Made by a program: the position numbers and the translations under genes. This document shows, one piece after another, positions 8,885 to 41,687 of a DNA stretch of 64,000 nucleotides. The notes beneath the pieces were generated by a model that saw only the letters and a program-made list of their open reading frames with translations, made no database searches and was not told the origin of the DNA. Source of the stretch: Fimbriimonadia bacterium (GTDB taxonomy: Bacteria; Armatimonadota; Fimbriimonadia; Fimbriimonadales; JABRVX01); contig JBGPGO010000011.1 in the NCBI GenBank assembly GCA_041483895.1, positions 91,390 to 155,389 of the forward strand, read 5' to 3'. How positions within the stretch are numbered: position 1 is the first letter of the stretch; every line of letters begins with the position of its first letter.

Positions 8885-8912
8885 CCTATCGAAAATCGCC
8901 ATTATCGGTACC
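8885..8912 (+). other. 28-bp dif-like recombination site, copy 1
   Basis: CCTATCGAAAA-TCGCCA-TTATCGGTACC, intergenic. Confidence 0.75.
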
Positions 8913-9027
8913 AACACAACATGTACCAAGGGTCTGCTAGCAAATCCAGTCGTAGGAGAAAACGTCGGCGCCCGCGCCTGGAATTGCTACGGCATACAGT
9001 TTCAGAAGGCTATGGTTCGGTGGCAGT

Positions 9028-10182
9028 TCACTTGCTCAAAGGGACCAGAATCGTAACAACGAAAAGTATGCCAGCCGCTAGAAGATAGGGCGACATGGGC
9101 AGCCAATCGAACAACAGTCCGCCCAGAATTGGCCCGATCAAGAATCCCAATGAGCGGCTTGACTGAAGCATGCCGAACAATTCCCCCTGGCGATCAGGGG
9201 GTGTCAGATTGCTCGCAAGCCCGCTAATGATAGGATTGGCTCCACCCACTCCAACGCCATGTATCGAAGCAGCGAGCACAAGCATTTTCATGCCAGGCAT
9301 AAAGGGCATCATCGCTATTCCGCTGCCTTGGAGGAAATACGATGCGCGTAACGCGACGTGCTCGGAGCAATGACGCAAAACGAACGGCAAGAAGAATCCT
9401 TGAATGAGCATTGCAACCGTCGCCTCTACCCCCAAGATGAAGCCGAATTCCAGTTGACCGTAACCAAATCTAAGATGAATCAATCGCCCAAACGTCCCTT
9501 CCAAACATGCTAGGGCGAACCAGCCAATGAGGGCGACGAGGAACAGTCGCATCAGTTCAGGATGACTTCTCAGGAACGAAACGCGATTCGGGGTTGAAGG
9601 AGGGCGGCTGTCCCCGATCGGAGCGACGGAAGGCAGTGCAACACCAAGCCAAAGCGCACCGATGAACGAAGCCGATGCGGCTACCAGACCGATCGCCATG
9701 TTGCCGCCGACTTGGGCAAGCCAACCGCCGATTACCGGTCCCAAAATCAGTCCGGCGGTTACCGATGCGCCGATCCTGCCCAACCCAACCGTGCGCTCGC
9801 CACTCGCCGTCGCATCGGCAACATATGCTTGCGCCAGGACGACGTTCGCTCCGCCCAATCCAGCAAGAACCCTGGCAGCCAACAGCCAACTCATGTCGGT
9901 GGCAAATGCATACACGATCATTGATACCGCTGAGATGAGCGTACATACGACGAGAATTGGCTTTCGACCCACGCGGTCGCTCACACGACCCCAGCGCGGC
10001 GATGCGCCAACTTGGACAAGAAAGTAACTGGACAATGCAGTTCCGATAAGCCACCCCGGTGCTCCGAAGCTCTCCGCTCGCAGTTGGAAGTCCGGGAACA
10101 CCATCCCAAATCCGATGAGGTCGAGAAAGACGGCAAGGAGCAGAGTAAACTCTGTACGGTTCGAATGATGTTGCTTGTTCAC
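9028..10182 (-). CDS. MFS transporter (TetA/DHA1-like)
   Basis: LAVFLDLIGFGMVFP, motif A GRVSDRVGRKP, motif C GLILGPVIGG; many hydrophobic helices. Confidence 0.9.
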   Translation of the reverse strand: MNKQHHSNRTEFTLLLAVFLDLIGFGMVFPDFQLRAESFGAPGWLIGTALSSYFLVQVGASPRWGRVSDRVGRKPILVVCTLISAVSMIVYAFATDMSWLLAARVLAGLGGANVVLAQAYVADATASGERTVGLGRIGASVTAGLILGPVIGGWLAQVGGNMAIGLVAASASFIGALWLGVALPSVAPIGDSRPPSTPNRVSFLRSHPELMRLFLVALIGWFALACLEGTFGRLIHLRFGYGQLEFGFILGVEATVAMLIQGFFLPFVLRHCSEHVALRASYFLQGSGIAMMPFMPGMKMLVLAASIHGVGVGGANPIISGLASNLTPPDRQGELFGMLQSSRSLGFLIGPILGGLLFDWLPMSPYLLAAGILFVVTILVPLSK

Positions 10183-10314
10183 CTACTGAAGCCTTTGGAA
10201 GCGTCGGGCATGCCGTGGCCCAGCGCAGTCGAATTCACGGAGCGAACCACGCTCTTGAATTGCCGATCAGAATGCGTTCGCCAGGATCGGTAACAAATGG
10301 GCACACCATATGCG

Positions 10315-13300
10315 TCAAAGTTCTTCGGCCTTTACTGCGTCCTTTTCGAATCTTAAATAGAGTACTGGCAGTACGAATAGCGTGAGCAGTGTCGCCGAGA
10401 TTATGCCGCCAATTACGACCGTGGCGAGGGGTCGTTGCACCTCTGAACCGATGCCGGTGTTGAGCGCCATCGGGATGAAGCCAAGCGCCGCGACAAGCGC
10501 GGTCATGAGCACTGGCCGCAGTCTCTGATTTGCCCCTTCGCGTACGGCGTCCGATACTTTCAGCCCACTCTCGCGTAACCGATTGATGGCAGAAACCATC
10601 ACGACGCCGTTCAGTACCGCAACGCCCGAGAGAGCGATGAACCCGACACCAGCCGTGATGCTAAGTGGCATTCCACGAGCTGCCAACGCAAATACGCCAC
10701 CTGTAACCGCCAATGGTACACCTGTAAAGATGAAGACGGCGTGCTTCACCGATCCAAACGTCGTGAATAGCAGAACGAAAATTAGCGCGAGAGCGATCGG
10801 AACCACAAGAGCCAATCGCGCCGACGCCTTTTGGAGATTCTCAAACTGTCCGCCCCACGCCAAATAGTAATCTTCCGGTAACGACACCTTCGACTTTATG
10901 GCGCCTCGTGCAGCTTGGACGAAGGAGCCTAGATCGCGCCCTCGCACGTTGAGTTGAACCACTACTCTGCGCTTGCCGTTCTCCCGGCTGATCTGGGCTG
11001 GCGCATGCACCGTCGCTATCCGTGCAACGGTGGAAAGCGGTACGCCGGCACCGGAAGGAGATCTCACCTGCAGCGCCTTGATGGCTTCCACATCGTTGCG
11101 AACATCCTCCGGTAGCCTAATCGTCAGCGCGAACCTCTTGTCACCCTGGACGATCTGCCCCACAGGTTCGCCACCAAGAGCAACGGCGACCATGTCTTGG
11201 ATGTCATCCACGTTCAAGCCGAGCCGCGAAATGGCATCCCGATCTATCTCGATTTGCAGGACCGGCACTTCATCGACCTGCTCGACCTCGACGTCTTCGG
11301 CGCCGGGAATTGCCCGCACGACGTCGGCAATTTCGTCTGCCTTTGACTTCAGTGTTCTCAGGTCCTCACCGAACACCTTGATGCCAATGTCCGCCTTTAC
11401 TCCGGAAATGAGCTCCGAAAAACGCATCTGGATCGGCTGCGTGTAACCATAGCCCTGCCCCCGCACAACAGACACTCTTGAATCGATTTCTTCAATCAGT
11501 TTCGCCTTCGTCATCCCCGATCGCCACATGCGCGTCGGTCTGAGCATCACAAAGCTGTCCGTCAGACTGAGGGGCATGGCGTCAAAGGCGATTTCTGGCG
11601 TTCCGCTTTTTGAAAAAACCATCGCAACCTCGGGTAACTTGAGGATCTCCTTCTCCATCGCGGTCACGAGCTTCACGGTCTCTTCGGCATCGACTGTCCT
11701 CAGTCTGACCGGCTGGACTAAGATCGAACCTTCGTCGAGTTGCGGAATGAACTCCGATCCGAGTTTGCCGAACTGCAGGAACGCCGCACCGAGCAGAAGA
11801 GCCGCGCCTCCAAGCACCACTGCGCGGCGATGCATTGCGAATCCTAGCGTCCGGCGATAAGCGCGGCTTAGGAACTCCATCAAAACGTTCCGTCCTTCGC
11901 GCGTGTTGCCGGAAAGGACCATGCTGGCAAGCGCCGGGACAACTGTCATCGTAAGAATGAGAGCGCCTACGAGAGCAAATACGACGGTGAAAGCCATCGG
12001 CTTGAACATCTTGCCTTCGGTGCCTTGTAGAGCCAAGATAGGGAGGTACACGACCGTAATAATTGCAACGGCAAACGCAGTCGGCTTAGCAACTTCGCGC
12101 GAGGACTCCCAGACCGAATGGCGAACCTCTTGGCGGGATAAGGCGCGGCCCAAGCGCTCCCGAGCTTCCGCCAAACGTCGAACAGCATTCTCAATCATTA
12201 CGACCGCGCCGTCAACGATCAGTCCAAAGTCGATAGCCCCGAGGCTCATCAGATTGCCAGAAATGCCGAATTGGTTCATGCCGACGACGGCGCACATCAT
12301 AGACAGAGGGATTGCCAGAGCAACAATGAGGGCGCCGCGCAAGTTGCCAAGGAGCAAGAGCAGAATTGCAATGACGAGAATTCCGCCTTCAAAAAGGTTA
12401 CGTTCGACTGTTGCGATTGTCGCATTCACTAGTTCCGAACGGTTATAGGTCGTTGTTACAGTGACGTCTTTGGGAAGCTGCTCCTTGATGTCTCGAAGCT
12501 TGGCATCCACGGCATCAGCGACAGTTCGACCGTTCGCTCCCTTCAGCATCATGACCACGACGATAAGTGTTTCTTTGCCGTCTTTGCTGCTTACTCCAGT
12601 CAGAACCGGCGTCCCAAACTTAACTCCGGCAACGTCGCGAATGAGGACGGGGACCCCTCCCTCGCTCCTAACAACAATGCGCTCGACATCGCTCTCATTT
12701 CGAGCCAGACCGACACTGCGGACGAACGTACGCTCTCCGCCTTTGTCAATCACACCACCGCCGGCGTTCCGATTGTTCCTCTCAAGCGCGGAGGCGATCT
12801 CGCTGACCCCGATTCCACGCGCTTGCAAGGATTGTGGGTTCACTACGACCTGAAACTCCTTAACACTGCCGTCCGCGGAACTCACATCGGCGACGCCGGG
12901 GACGGTTCGTAGCTGAGGCGCGATGAGCCAGTCTTGGAGGCTCCGGAGCTCCATCGCGTTGCGCTTATCACTTTCGACCGAATACATGTAAATATCGCCA
13001 AGGCCAGTCGAGACCGGGCCAAGTTGAGGAACGTTCACGTCGGGAGGCAATTGTGACTTGACGCTACCGAGTCGTTCATTCACCAGTTGTCTCGCGAAAT
13101 ATGTATCGACATCGTCGCGAAAGGTGACCGTAACCTGCGATAGACCGTATTGGCTCTGGCTTCGCACGCCCTCGACACCCGCGATGCCGGCCATCGCCGT
13201 CTCAATGGGGAACGTGACGAGGCGCTCGACCTCCTCAGGACCCAGCCCTCCCGTCTGCGCGTTGACCTGGACCTGATTGGTAGTAATATCGGGCACTGCG

Positions 13301-13410
13301 TCCAAGTTGAGCCGTTGCCAGGAGATCGCCCCCGCACCGACTAGCACGGCAACTCCGGTGACAATCAAGAACTTTTGAGTCAAGCTAAAGTGGATCAGTC
13401 GATCCAACAT
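10315..13410 (-). CDS. czcA: Heavy-metal efflux RND permease (CzcA/CusA family)
   Basis: DAVPDITTNQVQ, GAIDFGLIVDGAVVMIEN, RLRPVLMTALVAALGFIPMA, GSEVQRPLATVVIGG. Confidence 0.93.
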   Translation of the reverse strand: MLDRLIHFSLTQKFLIVTGVAVLVGAGAISWQRLNLDAVPDITTNQVQVNAQTGGLGPEEVERLVTFPIETAMAGIAGVEGVRSQSQYGLSQVTVTFRDDVDTYFARQLVNERLGSVKSQLPPDVNVPQLGPVSTGLGDIYMYSVESDKRNAMELRSLQDWLIAPQLRTVPGVADVSSADGSVKEFQVVVNPQSLQARGIGVSEIASALERNNRNAGGGVIDKGGERTFVRSVGLARNESDVERIVVRSEGGVPVLIRDVAGVKFGTPVLTGVSSKDGKETLIVVVMMLKGANGRTVADAVDAKLRDIKEQLPKDVTVTTTYNRSELVNATIATVERNLFEGGILVIAILLLLLGNLRGALIVALAIPLSMMCAVVGMNQFGISGNLMSLGAIDFGLIVDGAVVMIENAVRRLAEARERLGRALSRQEVRHSVWESSREVAKPTAFAVAIITVVYLPILALQGTEGKMFKPMAFTVVFALVGALILTMTVVPALASMVLSGNTREGRNVLMEFLSRAYRRTLGFAMHRRAVVLGGAALLLGAAFLQFGKLGSEFIPQLDEGSILVQPVRLRTVDAEETVKLVTAMEKEILKLPEVAMVFSKSGTPEIAFDAMPLSLTDSFVMLRPTRMWRSGMTKAKLIEEIDSRVSVVRGQGYGYTQPIQMRFSELISGVKADIGIKVFGEDLRTLKSKADEIADVVRAIPGAEDVEVEQVDEVPVLQIEIDRDAISRLGLNVDDIQDMVAVALGGEPVGQIVQGDKRFALTIRLPEDVRNDVEAIKALQVRSPSGAGVPLSTVARIATVHAPAQISRENGKRRVVVQLNVRGRDLGSFVQAARGAIKSKVSLPEDYYLAWGGQFENLQKASARLALVVPIALALIFVLLFTTFGSVKHAVFIFTGVPLAVTGGVFALAARGMPLSITAGVGFIALSGVAVLNGVVMVSAINRLRESGLKVSDAVREGANQRLRPVLMTALVAALGFIPMALNTGIGSEVQRPLATVVIGGIISATLLTLFVLPVLYLRFEKDAVKAEEL

Positions 13411-13456
13411 ATCGTTTGACCTCCCTTGGGTGGGCGAGGGATTGATGTCGCACGTT

Positions 13457-13711
13457 TCATATGTGGCTGACCCAATCTTCGTTGGCTGACCGGTCCTTGC
13501 CGATCGCCCGTAAACGGTATCGATTCAACGCGACACCTGCCCACACCAATTCAACCACACCAAATGGCCAGGCCCCTTGCAAAAAACCATAGGTCGCGGC
13601 TAGCAGGCATGAGACGGCGAATCCGAGGACGAACCACGTAGCCCGGGCCTCCATCGCATAGCAAATTACCATTGCCGTGCAGGCAAACAGACCGAATGCA
13701 GTGAGTAGCAT
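13457..13711 (-). CDS. Small membrane protein within the efflux operon
   Basis: 84 aa, three hydrophobic segments (YGFLQGAWPFGVVELVW), 2 bp after the adaptor gene. Confidence 0.75.
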   Translation of the reverse strand: MLLTAFGLFACTAMVICYAMEARATWFVLGFAVSCLLAATYGFLQGAWPFGVVELVWAGVALNRYRLRAIGKDRSANEDWVSHI

Positions 13712-13713
13712 CG

Positions 13714-15252
13714 CTACTCTTCCCCTTTCAACTGGTCCTTCTTGGATTCGCTGGTAAGTACGAAGGTGCCCTTGATCGCGACTACCTCGCCGTTATTGAG
13801 ACTGTCAAGAATCTCGACATAGCCGCCGTCGGCAACGCCGACGGTCACTTCACGGCGCTCAAACTTGCCATCGCGGCCGACAAAGACGACGTTCTTGTCG
13901 GCGTCCTTGATGACCGCCGTCGACGGAACAGCGAGTACCGATCGGGATCGCCTAAGACCGATCCGCACGGTCACAAACATGTCAGGTTTGAGCGCGCCAC
14001 CTGCGCCGGTGATGAGGCACTGGACGGGCATGGTGCGGGTCTTCGGATCTAGGCGGCTTGCCACTATCGCGACGACTCCGTGAAAGGAGCGATTTTCGAG
14101 CGATGAGGCGGTAACAACGCAGTTCTCACCAAGCGATACCTTTGCGATGTCCTTCTCCTGGACGTTGGCCGTTGCCCAAATGCTTCCGATGTTCTCGATC
14201 TCCATCAGCGTTTGGGTGCGATCCACAGCCTGCCCGAGGGTTACGTCGATGTGGATAATGGTTCCCGAAACCGGAGCTATGATGGCGACTTGACCGAGAG
14301 ATGTGGCTCCTCCTCCGCTGGAAGCGCGATACGTGCCTTGGGCGTTGCGGATCGCTTTTTCGGAATTGGCAAGCGCTGCCCGGGCGGCGTCAATCTTTAT
14401 GATCGCCTTGTCCCGTTCTAGCTGGCTTGAGCGAACTTCGGCTTCACCAGCCTGCAGTTCGCGTGCATTGAGCAGCCCTTTTTGAGCAATGGATTTTTCA
14501 CGCTCATAGCCTGCCTTGGCCAGCTCTACCCGGGCTCTGCCCTTGTCCACCCGATTCTCGTCGAGTTGAACGTCGAGGCGGGCGGTTTCCCATTCGGATT
14601 TCGAAACGAGACCTTCTTTCAAGAGTCGCTCGTCTCGCTCCAACTGCTTGGTGTGGTAGTCCAATTGCCGCTGTGCTTCCAAGAGGTCGCTTTGAGCGTC
14701 GTTGAGTTCGCTTTGCGCCAGTTGTAGCGGTGCTTGGCTAAATGCGCCCTCCTTGGCAAGTTCACGTTGGCGCTCCAAATTCGTTTGTGCTGACTGGAGC
14801 TTTGCCTCGGCAAGCTTTGCCTCTGACCTCGACTGATTGAGGTCCGCCGCCGCCGCATCGCGTGACCGCTGGGCCTCGGCAACGGACTGCCACGACTGGG
14901 CGAGTTCCGAGGATTCAATCACCGCGAGAGTTTGGCCTTGCCGGACCACGTCGCCAAGTTGAACATTCAATCGGATCAGTCGTCCTGCGACCGGTGGTGT
15001 CACAACAGCCCGATTCTTATTCGTGCTGGTCATGACTCCGGGCACAGTCAGACTCTCTTGCATGCTCCGCAAGCCGGCCGGGGCGACTTCGATGCCAGCA
15101 ATCCGCTGGGCATTCGACGAAATCTCAATGGACTTGCCTGCGCTTTCAGCAGGATCGGGTTTGGTATCCGCCTCAGGAGTTTTCGATCCGCAACTGGACA
15201 AACCGACTGCGACAATAGTAAGCGCCAGTAATTCAATTCGCTTCAATTCCAA
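13714..15252 (-). CDS. czcB: RND efflux periplasmic adaptor (CzcB-like lipoprotein)
   Basis: Lipobox LSSC, lipoyl-like motifs (VTPPVAGRL, APVSGTI), long coiled coil, LKPDMFVTVRI. Confidence 0.88.
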   Translation of the reverse strand: MELKRIELLALTIVAVGLSSCGSKTPEADTKPDPAESAGKSIEISSNAQRIAGIEVAPAGLRSMQESLTVPGVMTSTNKNRAVVTPPVAGRLIRLNVQLGDVVRQGQTLAVIESSELAQSWQSVAEAQRSRDAAAADLNQSRSEAKLAEAKLQSAQTNLERQRELAKEGAFSQAPLQLAQSELNDAQSDLLEAQRQLDYHTKQLERDERLLKEGLVSKSEWETARLDVQLDENRVDKGRARVELAKAGYEREKSIAQKGLLNARELQAGEAEVRSSQLERDKAIIKIDAARAALANSEKAIRNAQGTYRASSGGGATSLGQVAIIAPVSGTIIHIDVTLGQAVDRTQTLMEIENIGSIWATANVQEKDIAKVSLGENCVVTASSLENRSFHGVVAIVASRLDPKTRTMPVQCLITGAGGALKPDMFVTVRIGLRRSRSVLAVPSTAVIKDADKNVVFVGRDGKFERREVTVGVADGGYVEILDSLNNGEVVAIKGTFVLTSESKKDQLKGEE

Positions 15253-16442
15253 CCTCCGACGACTATTCCGGCAGCCCGGTAATCTGAGATGCTTGCTTCG
15301 GCAACCCGTTGTTCGGCCTGGACTGAACCCTCCTCGACTTCCCGCAGGGAGCGCGTCGCCTCGAGAACATCGATCAGAGTGGACGCCCCTTCCTCGTAAC
15401 CGATTCGCGTTTTATCAACAAGGTTTCGGGCAGATTCCAGAATGTTACGATAGCTCTCGACTTGCGTTTTCGCGGACAGCAACTCTTCGCGAGTCGCCGA
15501 TAATTCCGCTACCGCCGTAAGCCGAATATCTTCGAGCGCCTGTTCGTTCGCTAGCGCCTTGGTTTGTGCCGATCTAACTTCGTTTCGAGCGCGTCCGAAA
15601 TCGAACACCGCCCATGATAACTGTATGCGCGCACCGAAGCGAGCGCCTCCTTCATGCCACGGCAGCCTCAGTCCCTGAATCTCAAGGTCAGGCCTAACGC
15701 TCGCCTTCGCAATACTCGCCTCGGCCTTGGCTGCTTGCACATCGGCTTTGGTGAGGAGAACGTCTGGTCGCTGGGAGATATCGACCGTTGCCAATTCACC
15801 CAATGTTGGAAAAGCGTTGACTTCCTCGGCGGCCACGGTGACTCCAAGCTGCGCAGACAGACGTTTCAGTGCGACAAACTTCTGGCTACGACGCAGATCG
15901 CTATTCTGTTGGGCGCGCATGACTTCGATTGCTGCCCGTGTTTGCTGCACCTCAGCGACCTTGCCTTCCTCGACCCTTCGGTCTACCGCCGCCTTCAGTT
16001 GTTCTGCGTTCTGTAATACGGAATCCGCCGTAATCGACAGCTTGACTGCCGAAACGGCTTCGGTCAGCGCCGTCAGCACGTCTGTCTGGAGGTCAATTAG
16101 CTCGCCGCGATACGCTGCTTCGGCCTGTTGGACCAGGGCCGCGCCACTCTGCCTGCCGGCTTTCGTTCGCCCAAACAGGTCAATCGGCTGTGAGATGAAG
16201 GCATCTTGGTCTGTCGATCCTATGTCGCGATCGGTCGAATATCCGACCCCAAGTTTCGTAGCCAAATATGTTCCAATGGCGCGAGCGCTGATCCTGGCTT
16301 GTTCAACCCGTAACTTTGCCGCTTGCAATTTAGGACGATGTTGCGCGGCCAACTGCAAAGCTCGTTGCGCGTCGATGGCGTCCGGTTGAGCCCATGCCGC
16401 CCGGACAAAACAAAAACAAAGACTTATGACCGTGGTATTCAA
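15243..16442 (-). CDS. TolC-family outer membrane efflux protein (CzcC-like)
   Basis: SQPIDLFG, GYEEGASTLIDVLEA; directly upstream of the adaptor and RND genes. Confidence 0.88.
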   Translation of the reverse strand: MNTTVISLCFCFVRAAWAQPDAIDAQRALQLAAQHRPKLQAAKLRVEQARISARAIGTYLATKLGVGYSTDRDIGSTDQDAFISQPIDLFGRTKAGRQSGAALVQQAEAAYRGELIDLQTDVLTALTEAVSAVKLSITADSVLQNAEQLKAAVDRRVEEGKVAEVQQTRAAIEVMRAQQNSDLRRSQKFVALKRLSAQLGVTVAAEEVNAFPTLGELATVDISQRPDVLLTKADVQAAKAEASIAKASVRPDLEIQGLRLPWHEGGARFGARIQLSWAVFDFGRARNEVRSAQTKALANEQALEDIRLTAVAELSATREELLSAKTQVESYRNILESARNLVDKTRIGYEEGASTLIDVLEATRSLREVEEGSVQAEQRVAEASISDYRAAGIVVGGWN

Positions 16443-16506
16443 ATGACTGCTCCTCCGTTTCGTTAGCTTTGGCCTAGAACGTCAGGCGGGTCAAAACCGA
16501 GCGGCT

Positions 16507-16941
16507 CTAGGCGAACATCAAACGATGGGAGCGAACAGGAGGGGCACGGGATAATTGCGTTCCCGGAGGAGCAGGTGGAAGACTGTGCGTCGATTCGACT
16601 TCGGTCGGGCCGCTCGATTTCCGTGGCTCGAGAATCGGTCCGCAGTCAACGGAGAGGCAAACTGGGTTGCCATTCCGCTGCTGGGCCGCTGCCCTAAGAG
16701 CCGCCACGTCATGGTTACAGAATTTGAGCTGGCAGCACAACCGACAACTTGTTCCGTTCAATCCTGATATCGCGTTGTTTCCGGTTGCCAAGACAACGAG
16801 GGACATGCTAGAGCAAATTTGACATGGGGTATCGTCAGGTCCGTAGTACTCGGCCTTACAGATGTGTGCCGTTCCGAGTAGAACAAGCACCGAACAGACG
16901 AATGCCCTTATCGCTCTCAAGTTGCTGCCGATGATTCGCAA
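16507..16941 (-). CDS. Cys-rich leader protein with RAPP motif (DUF2946/CruR-like)
   Basis: N-terminal hydrophobic segment, CQIC and CRLCC, C-terminal PPAPP..SRAPP; first gene of the efflux operon. Confidence 0.6.
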   Translation of the reverse strand: MRIIGSNLRAIRAFVCSVLVLLGTAHICKAEYYGPDDTPCQICSSMSLVVLATGNNAISGLNGTSCRLCCQLKFCNHDVAALRAAAQQRNGNPVCLSVDCGPILEPRKSSGPTEVESTHSLPPAPPGTQLSRAPPVRSHRLMFA

Positions 16942-17133: not shown

Positions 17134-17161
17134 CCTATCGAAAAGAACCATTATCGATAGG
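17134..17161 (+). other. 28-bp dif-like recombination site, copy 2
   Basis: CCTATCGAAAA-GAACCA-TTATCGATAGG, 8 bp from the stop codon of the CHAT gene. Confidence 0.85.
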
Positions 17162-17169
17162 AGCACGAG

Positions 17170-20845: not shown

Positions 20846-20873
20846 GCTATCGAAAACAACCATTATCGATAGG
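20846..20873 (+). other. 28-bp dif-like recombination site, copy 3
   Basis: GCTATCGAAAA-CAACCA-TTATCGATAGG. Confidence 0.85.
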
Positions 20874-21339: not shown

Positions 21340-21471
21340 TGTAAACGGCGGAGAGAAACTGTACCACTGAGGCGGCGGGTACCAACCCGAATCGCCGGAG
21401 CAAAATTGTACCGGCCTTGACGGCCTCTTCCAGACTTCGGATTGAAATCCGGAGGATGGGGAGGCGAAAGG

Positions 21472-22967: not shown

Positions 22968-22968
22968 G

Positions 22969-31892: not shown

Positions 31893-31920
31893 CCTATCGT
31901 AAAGAACCATTATCGATAGG
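31893..31920 (+). other. 28-bp dif-like recombination site, copy 4
   Basis: CCTATCGTAAA-GAACCA-TTATCGATAGG. Confidence 0.85.
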
Positions 31921-32056: not shown

Positions 32057-32461
32057 CTAGGCCAAGGTGGCGAAGATTAGTCGCTCGTGCCCAACAATGT
32101 GGCCGTCCACGAGAACGTCGAACCGATACCGGCCGGGCCCTTCAATAATGGTCGGTTCACCGAGACCAAAGGGGAGCTTCACCCATTGGCGACCCTCGAA
32201 AGCGTCGACGGGTGGATGCAGGTCCACATCGAGCGTCGCCGTCATGAGGCGGCTGCCGTCTTGGTTTATGAGGACAACGTCAACCTTAGCGGTCCGACCG
32301 CTTTCGCTCGGTTCATATTCAATCTCGGAAGCGAATGTCATAGGAGGCAATGGGCAAGGATATCGGCTCGGCGTGACCCGATCGAATAGGCCAACCAATG
32401 CCACGTTGCCGTTGGGCGATACTGATTCGTTTTCGCAGAGCTTACATAGTGTTGTTTTCAT
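32057..32461 (-). CDS. Small beta-sandwich protein (DUF6941-like)
   Basis: LC......G..ALVGLFDR...P...PGRYRFDVLVDG pattern. Confidence 0.65.
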   Translation of the reverse strand: MKTTLCKLCENESVSPNGNVALVGLFDRVTPSRYPCPLPPMTFASEIEYEPSESGRTAKVDVVLINQDGSRLMTATLDVDLHPPVDAFEGRQWVKLPFGLGEPTIIEGPGRYRFDVLVDGHIVGHERLIFATLA

Positions 32462-33254: not shown

Positions 33255-33262
33255 CCGGACCG

Positions 33263-33688
33263 TCACGAGCGCTTGGATTTCAGCCGGTCAGGATTGAATC
33301 CCAGTTTGCGCACTACCGTTTGCCTGCTTTTCTCTGCTCTCGCGGTCAGTTCTCGGCGTCGTTCCCGAACGTAGTCCTTCACAATCGTATAGCCGCCTTC
33401 GAAGCCGTATTCGTCGCATAGGAGTTGATAGATCCCGACGGCGGTGCAACCACTTCCGAAAACACCCTGGGCTTCTGCTTCGAGGATCTGATCGACAATT
33501 GGCGCTACGGCATCCAGCTTCGATTCTCTCGTCGCTTGATCCTGCCGATATCCTGGTGGACGCTCGTACGTCAGCATCTTGCGGACAGTGTCTCTGTGCA
33601 AGCCAAACTCCCGCGCTACCTCCCGAATGCTGAGGACCTTCTTGTTGATCGCCCTTTTGACGTCCTTGTAGACATCAGCCGCGTACAT
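33263..33688 (-). CDS. Stand-alone IstA-type N-terminal HTH protein
   Basis: SIREVAREFGLHRDTVRKML..PPGY..GFEGGYTIVKDYVRER aligns with the IstA N-terminus at 21472; no DDE domain. Confidence 0.75.
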   Translation of the reverse strand: MYAADVYKDVKRAINKKVLSIREVAREFGLHRDTVRKMLTYERPPGYRQDQATRESKLDAVAPIVDQILEAEAQGVFGSGCTAVGIYQLLCDEYGFEGGYTIVKDYVRERRRELTARAEKSRQTVVRKLGFNPDRLKSKRS

Positions 33689-33866
33689 GCGCCCTCTCGG
33701 TTTCGACGCTCATGGCGGCATTTTACCGGCTGTAAACACGGGAGAAAAATGCAGCCACGGGCGGGGAGCAAGAGTGTGCCACTTATCGGCGAGTTGATCG
33801 GGCCAAACTCAACCAGGGCCGAGAGTGCAGAGGTAACATCCATACTTCCATCAGAGGAGGGAGTTA

Positions 33867-34658
33867 TTGGGTGCGATGCAAATGATCCCATGCAAGAGAT
33901 TCCGAGCAAGTATGTGGAAGCGAACAAGAGAAGTTTCGGACGAGTTCATTTATACCGTCCGACTAACCATGATGCATACGGCGCTCGGCGTTTTCATCGA
34001 CCGTGCCAAGCAGGACGACGATCCCAACAAGTGGGAAGCTCAGGATATGCCCGAAAAGCTCGATCTGTTCGCCCGTCAGATGCATCTCTACGGCGAGATA
34101 ATCAATCAACTTTTCGGCGATACCGCTCCACGTAGAGGAGCTTGGCCTCACGAAGTAGCAGATGCCAAGTTCCGCATCTGGGCTAAGGTTATCGCAGACG
34201 CCAACCTGCAACTCAGTCAAGCCCGTAAGGAATTGCTCGAGGGAAAGGATGCTGCGTGGGATATAGTAAAGGCTGTTCGCAACCAACTGGGCGCGCATTT
34301 CGACATCGAAGTCATCCGTAGCGGGCTTGATCGCTGGCAAGAGCAACCACCTGACCAAAAGGCACACGCTTTCTACACGGGCCTGACTGAGGGCGACGAC
34401 GCCGATCACATCTTTCCCTTATCGCAGGAAATCATCGGATCTTTCCTCTGCGGTCTGGGTACGGAAGACCAATATTTTGACCGCATGGACAAGCTAATTC
34501 CTCCTCTACACAACTACTTGAAAATGCTGATCGCCGACCGGATCATGGCACTTCAGAAAAGCGGAGAACTGGAGTTGATTGAAGGTGAAATGCACGCTGA
34601 CATAGGTCTATGGCACCCGGACCACTACAAACGAATGATTCGCGATATGACCTCATAG
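33867..34658 (+). CDS. Helical protein with HEPN-like motif
   Basis: VKAVRNQLGAHFD fits the R-N-x3-5-H HEPN RNase signature; GGAGG upstream. Confidence 0.55.
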   Translation: MGAMQMIPCKRFRASMWKRTREVSDEFIYTVRLTMMHTALGVFIDRAKQDDDPNKWEAQDMPEKLDLFARQMHLYGEIINQLFGDTAPRRGAWPHEVADAKFRIWAKVIADANLQLSQARKELLEGKDAAWDIVKAVRNQLGAHFDIEVIRSGLDRWQEQPPDQKAHAFYTGLTEGDDADHIFPLSQEIIGSFLCGLGTEDQYFDRMDKLIPPLHNYLKMLIADRIMALQKSGELELIEGEMHADIGLWHPDHYKRMIRDMTS

Positions 34659-34686
34659 CGGCATTTTACTGGCCAACCGCCATTGA

Positions 34687-34714
34687 CCTATCGAAAATCG
34701 CCATTATCGATAGT
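34687..34714 (+). other. 28-bp dif-like recombination site, copy 5
   Basis: CCTATCGAAAA-TCGCCA-TTATCGATAGT. Confidence 0.85.
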
Positions 34715-34852: not shown

Positions 34853-35545
34853 CTAGCCCTGAGCGAAGATAATGGTTGTGTCAGGGGAAACCACCAGATG
34901 GTCTTCGTCAAACTCCTTGTACACGTCATAGGGACCGTCGATTCGGAGAAGCAACGGTGCGTCTGATGCAATGCCCGGTCCGATGATTACGCGCGTCGCA
35001 TCATTCAACGGCCCTGGCTCAAGAACATGCACTCCGTTCCATTTTCGATCGCTTTCTCGAATCAACGGTGGAGTTTCAAGAAGTCTCTTGGCAAAAAGGT
35101 AGGGATTTCGAACCAGGTTGGCAACCAGTCTACCTTGAGAGTTGTCTAGTTCAATAGTCGCGTTGATTCGCACGAGTCCTATTTCCTCGTCGATACCCAA
35201 AGTAAAGCTGACTCCGCTTGGCAGGTCCACATCTACGCGATCTGGTAATGCCCGAGCACAAACGAGTGAGCTGGGAGCACCTCCGTTCAACCGAACTGGC
35301 ATGAGTTGTGGGCCATGTCCAAAGGGGTACATGACGACAACAGTGAAGTCCTCGGCTAGCGAGTATTTGGTTCTTTCCCGCCAGTCATTTGGTTCGAACA
35401 CTAACGAGAGGAATTCGTCCCAAGAACAGCTCCATGACCAAGGATTCGTCGGTGGGCGCTCTTTCCAGGTTTCCGTTACGAGATTAGCGTTACGTGCCTG
35501 CCTTTTCATGATCTTACCTCGAGGGGTTCGAGTTAGCTCGGACAA
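34853..35545 (-). CDS. Hypothetical protein (distant paralog of 35533..36210)
   Basis: Overlaps the upstream gene; shares W-x3-C-x-W, LVxxPY and RV..GP motifs with it. Confidence 0.65.
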   Translation of the reverse strand: MSELTRTPRGKIMKRQARNANLVTETWKERPPTNPWSWSCSWDEFLSLVFEPNDWRERTKYSLAEDFTVVVMYPFGHGPQLMPVRLNGGAPSSLVCARALPDRVDVDLPSGVSFTLGIDEEIGLVRINATIELDNSQGRLVANLVRNPYLFAKRLLETPPLIRESDRKWNGVHVLEPGPLNDATRVIIGPGIASDAPLLLRIDGPYDVYKEFDEDHLVVSPDTTIIFAQG

Positions 35546-36210
35546 TAGCCCTTTATGACGTACGTATCAAGGCTCACTGTGTACTGGCCCGAACCGGTGA
35601 GAACTGCTTTCCCCATTGCTAATTCACATACAGTGCAAGGTGACACTATGGGTCCGACATACAGCACACGAATTTCATCCGGATCCGATGTCGAGGAAAA
35701 GGTGAGTTGGCCCGAGGTCGGGCTCGCGAATGCATATGACGGGAAGCTGGTGTCGCTGGGGCTGGAAACAACCCGCAGCTTGACCGTGCCGGCGCTAATC
35801 GCGTCGTTCGTGTAATCGTATGGCTTATTCACGAGGGCCCAACATGCCGGTCCAGCCGTTGAAGCCGAACCCAGCTCGAAGTGAACGTATGCGAGACCCA
35901 TATTAGAAACGATGGTGACGAACACGTCGCCAGATGGAGCCTCTTGAAACGGCGTACCAGGCATCGATGTGGCACGACCGCGAATTGAAACGAATGGAGT
36001 CGTTTCAATCCCTTCAACGCTGACAATGCTGTCGCCAGCGTCTTCTCCAGTCGGCGGGAAGATAAGCATGCTGAACGGTACGGGGAGCGTGTGATCGTTG
36101 TCGTCTTCCCAAGTCGCCTGATCCGTAAGAAGAGTTGCGATGTCGGACCAAGCGCACTGCACGGCCCAAAGAGTATCGTCCGCAGATACGCGTGCTATTG
36201 ATAAAGGCAT
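35533..36210 (-). CDS. Hypothetical protein
   Basis: 225 aa, GGAGGAA RBS, directly downstream of the CHAT-NTPase gene. Confidence 0.7.
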   Translation of the reverse strand: MPLSIARVSADDTLWAVQCAWSDIATLLTDQATWEDDNDHTLPVPFSMLIFPPTGEDAGDSIVSVEGIETTPFVSIRGRATSMPGTPFQEAPSGDVFVTIVSNMGLAYVHFELGSASTAGPACWALVNKPYDYTNDAISAGTVKLRVVSSPSDTSFPSYAFASPTSGQLTFSSTSDPDEIRVLYVGPIVSPCTVCELAMGKAVLTGSGQYTVSLDTYVIKGYCPS

Positions 36211-36286
36211 GATTCCTCCGGTTCATTTGCTAAACACAGATTAAGAACCGACGACAGAAAGGGATTCTTACGACAAATGGCGGAAA

Positions 36287-39200
36287 TTACGACAAAATAG
36301 TCGAGATCAACTGGCGCCAACCGAGCTTTCGGTAAGTAATAATATCACTTTGTCGTTCGCATGTAAGCTTTTCCATGAACGCCGCCAACCTATTATTTGC
36401 ATCCTTTCGCAATCTAGATGCTATCTCCGAATGGATCTTTGCCGCGGCAACTAGGCAGATTGCACAGTTCTCTTGTTCGCCAAGCCTTTCTAGAACAGGT
36501 GCAGCATCAAGCAAAGCTTTGCCACAATGAAACGTTCGATGCCCTTCCGATGCAATCCGTACCCCACGAAGGAATGCCTGCTTGGACCCAACCAGATCCC
36601 CAGCTTCCGAAAGTATCCGTCCACATTGTTGGTAGACAAAGAGCAACAGATCTAGCTCCGAGCTCATCGTAGCGTGCTTTAGCGACTGTTCCACCGCAGC
36701 ACGAGCATCGTCGAGACGGCTAGTCCGCGCCAATACTGAGGCGCGAATGGCAAGCGCCGTCGCAATCAGACCATCGCTGCCAGATGTCTCAGCAAATCGT
36801 TCGGCTTCGGTAAGAAGCTTTTCACCACCCGTGATATCGGATAACTCAAATCCTTGCACTGCGAGATCGAGCAACGCATCCGCTGCATCGCGTGGACAAT
36901 TGTGAGCCACAGCCAACTCTAGGCGCTCTGTCCAAGCGGCGGCAGCTTCAGCCTCTTTCCCCTCTCTTCTAAGCGCCGCACCTGACAAACCCAAGAGGTC
37001 TGCCTCGAGTTTCCAGTTTCCCAGTTGTTGGGCGGCCGACACGCCTGCCTCTCGCGTGCGATCAAAATCCTCTGCTAGCCCAGCTTCAAGGAAGCTACGG
37101 GCAAGGGCGTCCGCCAAGCGAGCCATAATTTCGCTCTGGTTGTTTTCACGCGCGAAATCGATCGCAGCCCGGTAGTTACCCAATTCTCTCCAAAGCATCT
37201 TCGTACCTTCCGACCATCTTCCCGCCTTCATGAGGTCGCTAAGGTTCAAAGCGACGAGCTCGTACCGCTCAGCATGTCTGAGGCGAATGTCTGTGCTCCC
37301 TGAAGCATTATCTCCGTGGGTGTCGCAAAGTCGTGCATACTGGCGGACGCAATCGAGCAAACGATACCGTGTGCGACCAGCTATGAATTCTCGCTGCACC
37401 AAAGAGTGGTCGATCAAGCGACCGAGAGCTTCCATTAATTCGCTGGGATCGGGATATTCGCAAACGTAGCAGGCGTCATCGAGGAAGAAACCACCAACGA
37501 ATACCGTCAGATTGGAAAGCAGCCTTCGATAATCATCGCCCAACAGATCGAAAGAGGCTGCAATCACACGCGAGATATCTCCATGGCGATCATCAACTGA
37601 GCTCCGCCGACGGAGAACTTGAAGCGTGTTGTCGCGCACGTGCTCGCAAAGTTCGGTAAGAGACATATGAGACAGCCGGCCGGCGGCGAGGACTATGGAG
37701 AGTGGCACCCCTTCCACCGCCTCGCAGATGTCAAGCGCCATTCTTGCATCTGATCCTCCAGGTTTGAGCTGTGCAGTCGTATGGGACGCGGCTTCGTAAA
37801 ACAGTGCCACTGCATCTGACCGGGTGGTTCTGCCTCTAATCGGCATCGGGGAAAGACGAATTTCATGTTCTCGCGGAAGACCAAGAACAACGCGGCTTGT
37901 TACAATGAGGTGTAGTCCGGAGCACGACTTCAATAGGTCGTCCAATATGTGCGCCAGATCGGTTATCCCCTCAAAGCAATCGAGAATTAGGAGCATTTGA
38001 GATTCGCCAACTTGCGATTTCAGATCGGCAAGAGTGGGGCGAACGTCATCGCTCTTGTCCATGGCTGCGGCGATTCCGCCAATCAGGTCTTCGCTCGACC
38101 GCAATGTCTCACACTCGACAAGCCACGCTCCGCCAGGAAAGTTGTCAAGCAATTCGAGCCCGACCTGCTTGCTGAGCCTAGTCTTGCCGATTCCCCCCGG
38201 TCCGGAAATCGTAATAAACCGCTGGCCATTGAGCATCCGACTTCGCAATTCCTGTCTTTCGGAGGTCCGTCCGATGAAAGGGCGTTCGTCCGAAGGAAAA
38301 TTGTGCCGTGACACTTGCCCAATTGACCAGACAGGAATCGCTTTCTCTGATCGAGCGAGGAATTTGGTTTGTCCATCCCCAAACATAACGGGTGCGAGCC
38401 AATCTGCGCCGGTACCGGCCAACGCTGCTCTAGCTTCTGAGAGGGCTGCCCCAATATTACTCCCGGAAAGAATCGCCGAGTAAAACACTCGCGTTAGTGT
38501 CGGGCCAACTGCATCTCGCATTGGCAACTGCATCGAGATAACATGGGGTACTGGGCCACTCTCTTGCTGCAACCAATCGCCGAATTTACCGGTGTTGCAG
38601 GCCGCAAGAAATGCCAGACTTGTCCCGCTTGACCTGAGCCACTGGACTAACTCGTCGGCGTGCACAACGGTTGCAGTGCCAGTATCACCTTCATTCAAGA
38701 CTATGCCGGGACCGGTCGCTGTCACTGTGCCGTGACAAATCGCATGCAGCACGTGAGGTTGCTTATCGAACAGGAGTTGTCGAAGACCACTTGGGGTGGC
38801 GTACGGGAGGCACTCCAATTCGAATAGATCGGATGTTGCCGCCATCCGTTGCAGTGCATCCAGTTCTCGACCCGCGTAACCAATGCGGGGAAACTCCTTC
38901 GTACGAACGTCCGCCACAACTGCGGCAACTTTCAGCGGCAATGTATGGGGGCAAGGATTACGTTTTGCATTTGCTGTTCCTCTCACCATAATCACATTTG
39001 GATGCAACGCCACGAAACCGATACCGCTTTTGGCAAGATAGACAGCTTCCCACGGCTGCCGACTGGCGACCTGGTCACACTGGAGAATAACCTCCAAATC
39101 CGACTGCGATTCCAATGCGTTCAAGAGCGCAGCAGCGAACTCATCGGCCAACCTGCCGCCAAAGAGAATATCAGATAGCCCTTTTCCAATCTTGATGAGT

Positions 39201-39373
39201 TCAGCTTGCGGAACTGGATTGCTGATATGGCCACGGAGTCTGGCTGGGATTCCATCAGGATCCGGTTGCGGGGCCTCATGCGCCGTCAGGAGACCATCGC
39301 GCCCAATAGAATGGACTTCGAATCGATCTCCGATGGATCGAATGTGAATCTTGAAGCAATGATAATCTCCCAT
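36287..39373 (-). CDS. CHAT protease - STAND/NB-ARC-like NTPase - TPR protein
   Basis: PWE, LHAICHG and LAACNT (CHAT dyad); FIGR, Walker A GPGGIGKT, LLILDCFE, VTSR, GVPLSI; TPR-like tail. Likely start MGDYH at 39373. Confidence 0.88.
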   Translation of the reverse strand: MGDYHCFKIHIRSIGDRFEVHSIGRDGLLTAHEAPQPDPDGIPARLRGHISNPVPQAELIKIGKGLSDILFGGRLADEFAAALLNALESQSDLEVILQCDQVASRQPWEAVYLAKSGIGFVALHPNVIMVRGTANAKRNPCPHTLPLKVAAVVADVRTKEFPRIGYAGRELDALQRMAATSDLFELECLPYATPSGLRQLLFDKQPHVLHAICHGTVTATGPGIVLNEGDTGTATVVHADELVQWLRSSGTSLAFLAACNTGKFGDWLQQESGPVPHVISMQLPMRDAVGPTLTRVFYSAILSGSNIGAALSEARAALAGTGADWLAPVMFGDGQTKFLARSEKAIPVWSIGQVSRHNFPSDERPFIGRTSERQELRSRMLNGQRFITISGPGGIGKTRLSKQVGLELLDNFPGGAWLVECETLRSSEDLIGGIAAAMDKSDDVRPTLADLKSQVGESQMLLILDCFEGITDLAHILDDLLKSCSGLHLIVTSRVVLGLPREHEIRLSPMPIRGRTTRSDAVALFYEAASHTTAQLKPGGSDARMALDICEAVEGVPLSIVLAAGRLSHMSLTELCEHVRDNTLQVLRRRSSVDDRHGDISRVIAASFDLLGDDYRRLLSNLTVFVGGFFLDDACYVCEYPDPSELMEALGRLIDHSLVQREFIAGRTRYRLLDCVRQYARLCDTHGDNASGSTDIRLRHAERYELVALNLSDLMKAGRWSEGTKMLWRELGNYRAAIDFARENNQSEIMARLADALARSFLEAGLAEDFDRTREAGVSAAQQLGNWKLEADLLGLSGAALRREGKEAEAAAAWTERLELAVAHNCPRDAADALLDLAVQGFELSDITGGEKLLTEAERFAETSGSDGLIATALAIRASVLARTSRLDDARAAVEQSLKHATMSSELDLLLFVYQQCGRILSEAGDLVGSKQAFLRGVRIASEGHRTFHCGKALLDAAPVLERLGEQENCAICLVAAAKIHSEIASRLRKDANNRLAAFMEKLTCERQSDIITYRKLGWRQLISTILS

Positions 39374-39381
39374 TGTCGCAG

Positions 39382-40332
39382 CTACCGATTCAATTCTATT
39401 CGGAGAGCACACAGTGTGAGTCCTGGATCCGTTATTCCATTCACTGCGATGTCCACAACCCCCTTGCGAATGAGATCCCACGTACTAACGAACACAAGAG
39501 TTTGCCACCGCTCCGCAGCCACGACCACTCGAACTGCAAGCTTCCTGGTAGCAAGCTTCTTCCGAACAGTTTCCGAAGAGGACAGAGTAAACTTGAGATC
39601 CTCTCCGTCATCCGAAGTTCGGACAATTCCAATCGGTCCCACTGAAACCTCCGGTTCGTCCGCATCCCAGCAATTGAGCTCGCCTTCGCGCGAATCAATA
39701 ATAAAATGTGTCTTATCTGGTTGAAGGCAATCGGAAATTCGCCATGAATCGAGCTCATTTAGCGCATTGGGCACAAAAACGCCGTCCATGTGGACGAGCC
39801 AAGGACCGAAACAGAGTTCGCCGCCAACAACCGGCAAGTATGCGCTGAGCCCGGTCGTAGCTTGACGTGCGACGGACGGTTCGGGTGCCTCCAAAGTTGT
39901 CGCTTGAGCCCCTCGGCTTGTACCTATTTGGGGCAAACGGCGCCGGCGTTTGAGCTGTTCAGAGACGGAATAAAGGAGCGCCCGAAGCGTTGGGGACAAA
40001 GGCGGGGAGATAGGTCGAGTTGGCAATGACAATTCGGCCAATCGATCAAGAACAACCTGCTTCCAAGCCGCAGCAAGAGGTCCCCGCTCCCCTATTTGAC
40101 CCAACTCCGTCTTAGATAAGGTTTCAATATCCGCGGAAGATCTGATCAGCGATGAGCGCTCCGATGGGTTCTGAGAACACCTCTGAATCAAATCGCGCGC
40201 TTCGGTCCAGTCCAATTCACCCGCAAAAAACCGGGCGATTTGCTCATGGTCGGGATCGCAGGGCGATGAGCTTTGCCGGAAAAATGCTCTTGCGGCATTA
40301 TGCGTCGAAGAATCTAGCTCGATATCTTGCAT
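39382..40332 (-). CDS. Putative anti-sigma-like partner protein
   Basis: 2 bp after the sigma-like gene; N-terminal CDPDHEQIARFFAGEL...IQRC resembles degenerate zf-HC2 anti-sigma domains. Confidence 0.5.
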   Translation of the reverse strand: MQDIELDSSTHNAARAFFRQSSSPCDPDHEQIARFFAGELDWTEARDLIQRCSQNPSERSSLIRSSADIETLSKTELGQIGERGPLAAAWKQVVLDRLAELSLPTRPISPPLSPTLRALLYSVSEQLKRRRRLPQIGTSRGAQATTLEAPEPSVARQATTGLSAYLPVVGGELCFGPWLVHMDGVFVPNALNELDSWRISDCLQPDKTHFIIDSREGELNCWDADEPEVSVGPIGIVRTSDDGEDLKFTLSSSETVRKKLATRKLAVRVVVAAERWQTLVFVSTWDLIRKGVVDIAVNGITDPGLTLCALRIELNR

Positions 40333-40334
40333 GA

Positions 40335-41522
40335 TTATTTCGCCTGTGAAGCCCTTTCCTGCGCCACGTACTTTGCCAAGTTCGCAATGAGTCTTCCTTG
40401 GCTAATCCATCCGTTCAACATGGCGGTCGAAATACTGTAACCAATTCGCTCTGCCGCGGGAGCAAGAACTGCGTGGATATCTTGGTGAGGCAAACAATCG
40501 CAGTACGCATATTGGAATGCAATCCGCATCCACACTCCCGGACAAGCAAGCGCCCTTCCAAATGCGGTGCCTAATTCCGGATCTGCGACCATTCGCTCAA
40601 CGATCCCAGCATGAGGATAGTCGCCGCGCACACGCGATAACACCTTTAGTATCTCTGGCTTTGAACGATGCAGGCGATCCTTTTGCACAATCTGATCGAT
40701 TGACATGCCGTAGCGAAGACGATAAACCGCCACGGCAATTTCTGGCCATGACCATCCATCGGGATTTGGTAATTCGGGATGTTCAGCCAGCGCAGCGGTC
40801 ATGAGGGCTTCCAATTTCCGATTTGGTGTCTCAGCGGGTAGACCAACGACCTGCGCGATGAGTCGATACGTGGGCACATAGAGTTGGTTGTAGGCAATGC
40901 GTCGGAGGGCTGGCTCACAAACCAGCAACTGATCCAATTCATCTCGTCCGGGCAAAAGCCTACCGGAGGAGGGCGATAAGATATGCCGCGCCTGAAGCCA
41001 CGGAAGCCGATCTACCAATAGAAGTTGACCAAGAAGGACGAGGGCCGGCCAAGCTTCGCCATCAATGCGCGGATCCTTCCCAAGCCACAATTCGTCTGCT
41101 AATTGGTAGGCCATCTCGATATCGTCTGCAAGTGAAATGATTTCAGAAAGCGCGGGCAAATCGCGGTCCGGAATCTCCGTGTCTTCGGACATACGGACGA
41201 GCTTATGCGCAGAGATCGAGAAGCGAGACCGTAGACAATTGTCCGTCATGACAAAAAGAAGCCTCCACCAAGCTCCGTTTCCCCGAAAGGTCAGCCGGTG
41301 ACGATATTGCCAAAGCCTCTTCGCAATGTCTTGCAATACGTCGTCCGCTAATTCAGGCTCCACCTTCAGTTCTAGGTAGTTCCTGATCACGCGACGAACA
41401 GACGGTAGTAACTCATCAAAAGCCCGTCCGGCAACTTCATCCGACTCGTCAGATAGGGCGGTGACGAGTGCAAACAACGTCGAAGGACCTTGGTATTCCG
41501 GTTGTGTTTCAGCGACAGTCAA
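40335..41522 (-). CDS. ECF sigma-factor-like protein with long C-terminal extension
   Basis: Region-2-like AFDELLPSVRRVI..ADDVLQDIAKRLW..F....AWW.LL.V..DNCLR; TATAAT upstream. Confidence 0.65.
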   Translation of the reverse strand: MTVAETQPEYQGPSTLFALVTALSDESDEVAGRAFDELLPSVRRVIRNYLELKVEPELADDVLQDIAKRLWQYRHRLTFRGNGAWWRLLFVMTDNCLRSRFSISAHKLVRMSEDTEIPDRDLPALSEIISLADDIEMAYQLADELWLGKDPRIDGEAWPALVLLGQLLLVDRLPWLQARHILSPSSGRLLPGRDELDQLLVCEPALRRIAYNQLYVPTYRLIAQVVGLPAETPNRKLEALMTAALAEHPELPNPDGWSWPEIAVAVYRLRYGMSIDQIVQKDRLHRSKPEILKVLSRVRGDYPHAGIVERMVADPELGTAFGRALACPGVWMRIAFQYAYCDCLPHQDIHAVLAPAAERIGYSISTAMLNGWISQGRLIANLAKYVAQERASQAK

Positions 41523-41659
41523 TGGTGATTGCGCCCATTATATCAAAAACCGCCGAATCCGGCATCAGCCTGGAGTGATCTTCAAGATTTGGGGCTTTGC
41601 CCCAGCGAATTGTTAAAACCTACCGCAAGTCTTGCCGAAGGGAGTTGTGAAGTGACTTA

Positions 41660-41687
41660 CCTATCGAAAATAACCATTATCGATAGG
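41660..41687 (+). other. 28-bp dif-like recombination site, copy 6
   Basis: CCTATCGAAAA-TAACCA-TTATCGATAGG, at the left end of the core element. Confidence 0.85.

Follow-up and report, generated by a model that had tools for sequence, protein, structure and literature searches.

Why should a motif built like a Xer/dif recombination site recur, always in one orientation, between blocks of accessory genes in a sediment bacterium of the class Fimbriimonadia? The stretch that raises this question comprises 64,000 nucleotides (GenBank assembly GCA_041483895.1, contig JBGPGO010000011.1, positions 91,390 to 155,389; hereafter the window), and in it six copies of a 28-bp motif divide some 33 kb into gene modules. 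Our analysis indicates that crossover at this motif is probably the work of a small tyrosine recombinase, acting as a single subunit and encoded by tRNA-integrating elements, which would build such arrays by site recombination.

A sequence-only reading of the window had placed the six copies at 8885, 17134, 20846, 31893, 34687 and 41660, and these positions hold exactly, with 0-3 mismatches and with a match in 0 of 100 shuffles. Every copy is intergenic, has the same polarity and carries an NNN-CCA spacer, and the geometry is of Xer type, as that reading had described, with two 11-bp arms around a 6-bp spacer and TTAT at the inner right arm. A seventh, degenerate copy on the + strand (3650-3677) had been overlooked. 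The genome-wide scan that the reading had proposed was done with a profile (position weight matrix, PWM) built from the six window copies, and across the 3.95-Mb genome (G000) it returned 30 strong copies in nine clusters on seven contigs, two weak matches (15-17 bits) being excluded from this count, vs 0-1 matches above 14 bits in each of three shuffled genomes. A spacer-masked, arms-only scan gave 31 matches at a 6-bp spacer, namely the 30 plus one weak one, and 1, 3, 1 and 0 matches at spacers of 4, 5, 7 and 8 bp. The arms are near-palindromic across the island sites and near-perfect in all 30, whereas the flanks have diverged to ~82%. The claim that all copies are direct stands for the window (7/7 with the copy at 3650) but not for the genome, where 18 of 21 neighbouring pairs are direct and three inverted (binomial p = 0.0015, with one ambiguous site oriented by its spacer). 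For seven of the nine clusters a tRNA gene is no more than 18 kb away, where chance would give 3.5 (2% of permutations, with a threshold picked post hoc). In three sites with the spacer CGTCCA (C7:55699, C7:61749 and C4:158640; C numbers denote contigs of this genome, the window lying on C11), the arms point the opposite way to the spacer or have no clear polarity.

The same reading had suggested assaying the site with a full-length homologue of the recombinase encoded at 32601, vs host XerC/D. The protein at 32601 belongs to the right family but lacks its N-terminal half, homology to intact copies beginning near 32734, and the truncation junction in this region is bridged by an independent contig. 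The full-length enzyme is a 315-amino-acid Xer-like tyrosine recombinase, of which two intact copies lie on C7 (one of them at 66568-67512) and one on C4, while remnants occur on C1, C2, C6 and twice in the window; 6 of the 9 site clusters contain a remnant. Four recombinase starts (the three intact copies and the C1 remnant) lie 16-17 bp from a site with a GGGCCA spacer, and on C4, on C7 and in a related genome, G002, the gene is bracketed by inverted sites. The catalytic residues R165, K188, H260, R263, H287 and Y296 are invariant in 31 aligned proteins and present in the three intact copies, among which the ratio of nonsynonymous to synonymous substitution rates is 0.06-0.09, indicating purifying selection. 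The recombinase scores 61-95 bits, far under the XerC, XerD, XerS and XerA cut-offs; its nearest solved structures are XerA and XerD, with no match to Cre. In a tree of 29 chosen proteins, in which the integrase of the window forms a long branch and the root serves for drawing only, the 26 family members make up a clade (99/98) that excludes the host Xer pair. A search for sigma-70 promoters at the C7 recombinase site gave none. The 28-bp site is likely the target of this recombinase, and since the window copies are truncated, any present activity must come in trans from the three intact copies on C4 and C7. The site is tied to this one element-encoded family and not to host XerC/D, and the enzyme would act as a single subunit.

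Two related genomes of the same taxonomic family, G001 and G002, encode enzymes 71% and ~60% identical, the G002 gene being broken. There the site arms are altered on both sides to GGTCACG/CGTGACC and are still palindromic, with three such sites in G001 and two in G002, all with CCA, and none of the G000 type in either. In G001 the order is tRNA-His, integrase, methyltransferase, HTH gene and terminal open reading frame (ORF), followed by a site in the polarity of site 6 of the window, and five gene types of the window's core element recur there in the same order; in G002 the block of methyltransferase, HTH gene and terminal ORF is again followed by a site of this polarity and adjoins the recombinase gene between its inverted sites. 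Element end and site therefore travel together, and the site sequence follows the enzyme. This linkage and co-variation point to the element enzyme rather than to host XerC/XerD. The proposal of a tRNA-integrated element with its own Xer-type site is borne out in that the site ends the core element here and in G001, with the same end in G002, but no attL or far-end direct repeat of the tRNA 3' end was found on C11, where the far island boundary may be eroded. No homologue of the terminal core ORF turned up in 400 other genomes of the phylum, nor of the core methyltransferase in the viral contigs searched, and in the search for an empty site the relatives were too distant and the left flank gave no usable match.

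At 40-50% identity, relatives of the recombinase are present on 118 plasmids, most of them cyanobacterial, at no fewer than 524 genome loci, of which the best 80 were examined, and in 23 of 401 genomes of the phylum. A site of 11-6-11 geometry lies within 300 bp upstream at 67 of these 80 loci vs 2 of 262 control windows, the former figure being optimistic because the family site profile was trained on the same upstream regions. The usual single site beside the gene in distant relatives suggests a Cre/lox-type resolution unit, here multiplied into arrays; the ancestral unit would have been a replicon-resolution module and the arrays a derived, uncommon state. One other array was found, on a 32-kb plasmid-like contig of Ammoniphilus carrying the enzyme, four cognate sites and relaxase, coupling protein, ParA and DUF927 genes; its site orientations are -, -, +, -, so that direct pairs are not the rule there. 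Sites of the Ammoniphilus type were absent from 17 other genomes of that order, and a pattern scan of four cyanobacterial genomes stayed near control level. The exact G000 pattern had 0 matches in 60 relatives and in metagenome contigs; a looser one matched 97 metagenome and 5 viral loci, with a family recombinase at 20 of the 102 and no convincing array among them. Many of the relatives at 40-48% identity being cyanobacterial, the recombinase possibly belongs to the 'Cyan' subgroup of simple tyrosine recombinases named in the accessible part of PMC8138268.

Two further configurations were observed in the family. At six loci of the same phylum (L116, L123, L125, L127, L130 and L135) the recombinase follows a conserved sugar-permease-like gene and a palindromic site lies just downstream; this group may be a domesticated single-recombinase system of chromosomal resolution. 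The related prophage-like contigs L298-L303 and L305 encode a 35% identical recombinase with one near-perfect site ~520 bp downstream.

The features of the window are, in order:

3650..3677, + strand: site 0, degenerate, spacer GATCCT (PWM 30.8 bits; arms-only 27.8 bits)
5417..5459, no strand given: flank usual beside a recombinase-proximal site (81% over 43 bp to the C4 site flank; inverted match to the site 1 flank)
5458..5932, + strand: recombinase pseudogene remnant, 3' half, frameshifted (tblastn 76% and 57%, two frames)
6141..8741, + strand: 866-amino-acid cargo gene, no family match, between the recombinase remnant and site 1
8885..8912, + strand: site 1, spacer TCGCCA, between two convergent stops
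9028..16941, - strand: module 1-2, with MFS transporter, CusA/CzcA-family RND pump, adaptor, outer-membrane factor and small ORF (TIGR00914, Pfam)
17134..17161, + strand: site 2, spacer GAACCA, 8 bp from the next gene's stop codon
17170..20754, - strand: module 2-3, one TPR-CHAT gene occupying the entire interval (family scan)
20846..20873, + strand: site 3, spacer CAACCA, with ~490 bp of element-end sequence after it
21340..23842, + strand: IS21-family element with 41-bp perfect inverted ends
23901..31523, - strand: 2540-amino-acid repeated beta-helix protein, cargo of module 3-4 (family scan)
31893..31920, + strand: site 4, spacer GAACCA, with an element-end-type flank next
32057..32461, - strand: DUF6941 gene (homologue after an element-end site on contig C4)
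32734..33254, + strand: catalytic half of the cognate tyrosine recombinase, within ORF 32601-33254 (86-89% amino acid identity to the three intact copies)
33263..33760, - strand: second IS21 remnant, N-terminus of IstA (NF033546, E 2e-18)
33867..34658, + strand: cargo gene, no family match, stop codon 28 bp from site 5
34687..34714, + strand: site 5, spacer TCGCCA, of the class seen downstream of recombinase genes, between convergent stops
34853..41522, - strand: module 5-6, five co-oriented genes including a CHAT/NB-ARC/TPR protein
41660..41687, + strand: site 6, spacer TAACCA, distal end of the core element
41770..48661, both strands: core element genes (family scan)
48654..49787, + strand: tRNA-targeting-type integrase (25% identity or less to the site's recombinase, unrelated)
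49807..50846, - strand: Panacea/SocA-like antitoxin gene and small partner ORF
50959..51034, - strand: tRNA-Arg(TCG), probable integration site

The modules that the sites bound are coherent, as first described, and copy 6 does adjoin the core element, of which it forms the distal end. Family scans upheld the labels MFS, CzcA-family RND (TIGR00914 at 1294 bits, cut-off 701), TPR-CHAT, IS21, beta-helix, DUF6941 and CHAT/NB-ARC, but among the matches listed none supported PDZ, HEPN-like or sigma/anti-sigma, and the "HTH" of module 4-5 turned out to be the N-terminal remnant of an IS21 transposase; that module consists of the DUF6941 gene, the truncated recombinase, the IS21 remnant and an unknown gene. 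At the 5417..5459 flank, the adjoining site and the 5' half of the recombinase gene are deleted, and positions 5400-9000 had no homologue in the plasmids searched. The element-end DNA after sites 3 and 6 is 82% identical over ~500 bp (blastn, 20844-21340 vs 41658-42158); since sites 3, 4 and 6 are all followed by such related DNA, part of the array consists of stacked, eroded copies of related elements. The IS21 element at 21340..23842 lacks a target duplication, which makes an adjacent deletion likely; its transposase gene (21442-22967) is split into two overlapping ORFs by a frameshift. In the core element, the minus strand encodes two unknown ORFs, an HTH protein, a ParB-methyltransferase, a TubC_N-like protein and a DUF3854-DUF927 primase/helicase, and the plus strand one ORF.

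Across the arrays, module sizes range from 2 to 13 kb and operons reach 8 kb. Several intervals hold one gene or operon whose stops lie 7-30 bp from a site, with no element remnant. Between or beside the sites of other islands lie a Kdp operon, a Rieske-cyclase pair, a tricorn protease, a GH42-like gene, TPR/NB-ARC genes and type I restriction genes, and across islands genes run in both directions relative to the sites. If modules were integrated circles, the two half-sites of each should combine into a perfect palindrome; judged by eye, this fits two C2 intervals and not most others. Right after the truncated C1 recombinase stand, at L008:15983-18693, SIR2-SAVED and SMODS genes, resembling a cyclic-oligonucleotide-based antiphage signalling system (CBASS).

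Three repeats lie outside the array. A 27-bp sequence at 50873-50899, between the toxin-antitoxin genes and the tRNA, has two more copies at C1:172727-172887; it resembles integrase arm-type repeats and may mark another element end. A 62-bp repeat resembling repetitive extragenic palindromic elements, with ends GTG(C/T)TGGGGTC...GACCCC(A/G)ACAC, occurs in four copies between host genes (51064-51334 and 57330-57396), one of them inverted. At 60413-60492, between DUF1800 and DUF1501 genes, there is a perfect 27-bp inverted repeat with 26 bp between its arms.

The sites themselves bear what may be traces of crossover. All 30 sites have CC at spacer positions 4-5, in the spacer-masked search too, and the left triplet takes nine forms; CC occupies these positions in 13 of 63 distinct family sites, so it is no general requirement of the protein. 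Among 435 site pairs, 18 share the right 16-bp flank alone, none the left alone and two both. Four of the 18 are recombinase-proximal pairs whose left flanks narrowly miss the threshold, and the left spacer triplet differs in 13 of the remaining 14; the pairs come mostly from two flank classes and are non-independent. Site 1 is a hybrid: its right flank is that of the recombinase-proximal (GGGCCA) sites, its left half belongs to the TCG class and its left flank is unrelated. Shared right halves with variable left ones suggest one-sided homology. In phages among the integrative mobile elements exploiting Xer (IMEX), homology on one side of the central region allows one strand exchange, which replication resolves in CTXphi, according to the accessible text of PMC5357621, and the flank and spacer pattern here matches the expected outcome of one such exchange at the spacer's right edge, with resolution through replication.

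From these observations we infer the following course of events. In most relatives the enzyme beside its one site probably keeps a plasmid or phage monomeric, in the manner of Cre/loxP, and in this lineage the site would have come to end the core element and to bracket the recombinase gene. Circular sister elements or site-bounded pieces would recombine into a resident site, each addition bringing in DNA and leaving two co-oriented sites, and repeated additions, together with inversions, IS21 insertions and deletions, would yield arrays of 2-13-kb modules. The exchange probably needs homology on just one side, one strand pair being swapped and the junction resolved by replication; alternatively, fully matching spacers may recombine best. 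Binding, catalysis, circles and the order of events are all conjectural in this scheme. The assignment of the enzyme to the site is well supported, and the ~30 sites dividing these islands look like a self-run gathering and swapping of gene modules, no swapping having been seen directly.

Several observations weigh against such a mechanism. Five different cargo genes stand directly behind a recombinase gene with no site between, so that the sites leave the first entry of genes into a module unexplained. A second site is missing nearby at 61 of the 67 family loci with a site (many flanks being short), and of 29 viral loci examined (from 36 fetched, two seen earlier and five weak ones excluded) 18 have one site and none two. 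Within the phylum the family profile finds a site at 5 of 23 loci, a palindrome search suggesting divergent sites at several more, and a generic pattern gives more than three matches in none of the other genomes among the 401, with 22 in G000. Common descent of the 30 sites could account in part for the uniform CC. There is no close strain, and capture or excision of modules and synteny breaks at the sites stay hypothetical. Excised circles or new junctions, which the sequence-only reading had suggested looking for, were absent from four low-coverage sediment runs (of 24), compared with 23000-42900; these reads agree with the assembly and bridge sites 5 and 6 and the recombinase truncation. 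A joint 31951-41820 and a loose end at 31893 were considered as recombination products and rejected, owing to paralogous flanks at site 3 and C7:79097.

The element-end sequence after sites 3, 4 and 6, together with the single site per enzyme in most relatives, the recombinase remnants in six of nine clusters and the evident IS21-linked deletions, would also be expected if the sites were resolution sites of separate plasmids or integrative elements that homologous recombination or other integrases had stacked at tRNA loci and that later decayed, with no movement of modules by the sites. We consider this account doubtful, as it does not explain the several single-gene or single-operon intervals free of element remnants, the hybrid site 1 with its crossover at the site, near-perfect arms in all 30 sites amid diverged flanks, or the predominance of direct pairs, which random stacking would not produce. 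Direct pairs likewise tell against a shufflon-like system switching gene orientation. Such a system could draw on the three inverted neighbour pairs, on the inverted sites around the recombinase gene on C4, on C7 and in G002, and on one site with its spacer reversed relative to its arms; with all seven window sites direct, recombination would delete rather than invert, and no genes or promoters are split across sites, which leaves it hardly credible.

The 11-6-11 geometry and the TTAT of the inner right arm would equally suit host XerC and XerD acting as at Acinetobacter pdif sites, with the small recombinase a bystander or helper, and XerC- and XerD-like genes are intact in this genome (298 and 328 bits, slightly below the equivalog cut-offs). 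The host has, however, one separate dif candidate at C16:36687, with a TTATGTTAA-type arm and with arms and spacer unlike those of the island sites; it is conserved in four of the five genomes examined (one match each in G001, G002 and G006; none in G013). The near-palindromic island arms change between genomes along with the element enzyme while dif does not, and the site accompanies the enzyme family across phyla; a host-run system is thus very unlikely. Regulation offers another use for such a motif: it could be an operator, bound by a regulator that the element encodes or by the recombinase itself as a repressor. The site lies directly upstream of the recombinase gene in most family members, which makes autorepression at that copy plausible. 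An operator at fixed distances from promoters, one of the outcomes that the sequence-only reading had named as refuting its proposal, is disfavoured by distances to starts of 8 to >600 bp (four copies overlap provisional ORF starts that were probably called too early). In addition, convergent stops flank 9 of the 30 copies, as they do 147 of 768 gaps on nine contigs, and divergent starts flank only 5, the background being 199 of the 768, and arms-only matches are almost confined to the 6-bp spacer (31 vs 0-3 at other lengths), so that an operator as the general role of the motif is exceedingly improbable. Crossover by the element's own recombinase is the reading that we retain.

Among known systems, Cre/loxP of phage P1 combines one enzyme with near-palindromic arms and a direction set by the spacer. 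The present pair resembles it in these respects, and the one-site state of most relatives fits replicon resolution; it differs in its 28-bp Xer-type site with a 6-bp spacer and in lacking a Cre match among solved structures. XerS/difSL, XerH/difH and XerA/dif, as covered in the accessible text of PMC5357621, likewise rely on one recombinase, a site beside its gene (here 16-17 bp away) and imperfect inverted arms, but serve, in place of XerC/D, a single chromosomal terminus site, whereas here 30 island sites go with a mobile-element enzyme in a host that has XerC/D-like genes. The IMEX phages VGJphi and CTXphi share the one-sided homology model but, in the same source, use host XerC/D at host dif and have no recombinase of their own.

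Closest in architecture are the dif modules of Acinetobacter, for which the accessible portions of PMC13141974, PMC11705084 and PMC6449649 describe host XerC and XerD, asymmetric host-dif-like sites and standard modules that alternate between inverted sites; according to those of PMC13141974 and PMC11705084, recombination needs identical or near-identical spacers, and that of PMC12907356 reports chromosomal 'dif module islands'. Both have many 28-bp 11-6-11 sites with variable spacers, arrays of accessory modules and hybrid sites marking crossovers. The site here nevertheless differs from host dif, co-varies with the element enzyme and is near-palindromic, and its neighbours are mostly direct (18/21) with different left triplets. 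The label 'integron-like' was overstated, there being no attC, no integron integrase (22 bits against the IntI profile TIGR02249, cut-off 265) and no fixed gene orientation; as regards attC, a long imperfect hairpin behind each integron cassette, the repeat search found just the 28-bp site and short shared flanks, no attC covariance model search having been made. Co-oriented accessory units near a tyrosine recombinase do recall integrons (compare PMC8138268). Integron cassettes are mostly single genes in one orientation, unlike the multi-kilobase operons of mixed orientation here.

Our literature search, made largely without subscription papers and supplements, found no description of this enzyme-site pair, nor of such arrays outside Acinetobacter. 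Multi-site dif modules are treated as an Acinetobacter feature run by host XerC/D in the accessible text of PMC6449649 and PMC13141974, and the dif sites of cyanobacteria had escaped prediction in an earlier survey (PMC3025954). The present results suggest that a mobile element can give rise to this architecture through a resolvase of its own, with direct instead of alternating sites, and they identify a probable target, of 28 bp, for a clade of recombinases that is frequent on cyanobacterial plasmids, phages and other elements. As natural enzyme-site pairs with different arms, these systems make specificity and one-sided homology directly testable, and they could yield orthogonal single-subunit recombinases. 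More tentatively, a widespread, undescribed clade of single Xer-like resolvases may have given rise here to a self-contained module exchange that is still active, its site serving as a shared 'plug' at 30 places in one chromosome and a 3-bp one-sided homology sufficing to join any pair of co-oriented sites; if true, multi-kilobase operons for metal efflux, potassium uptake, defence and glycan use would be inserted, cut out and passed from island to island with no need of host XerC/D or an integron integrase.

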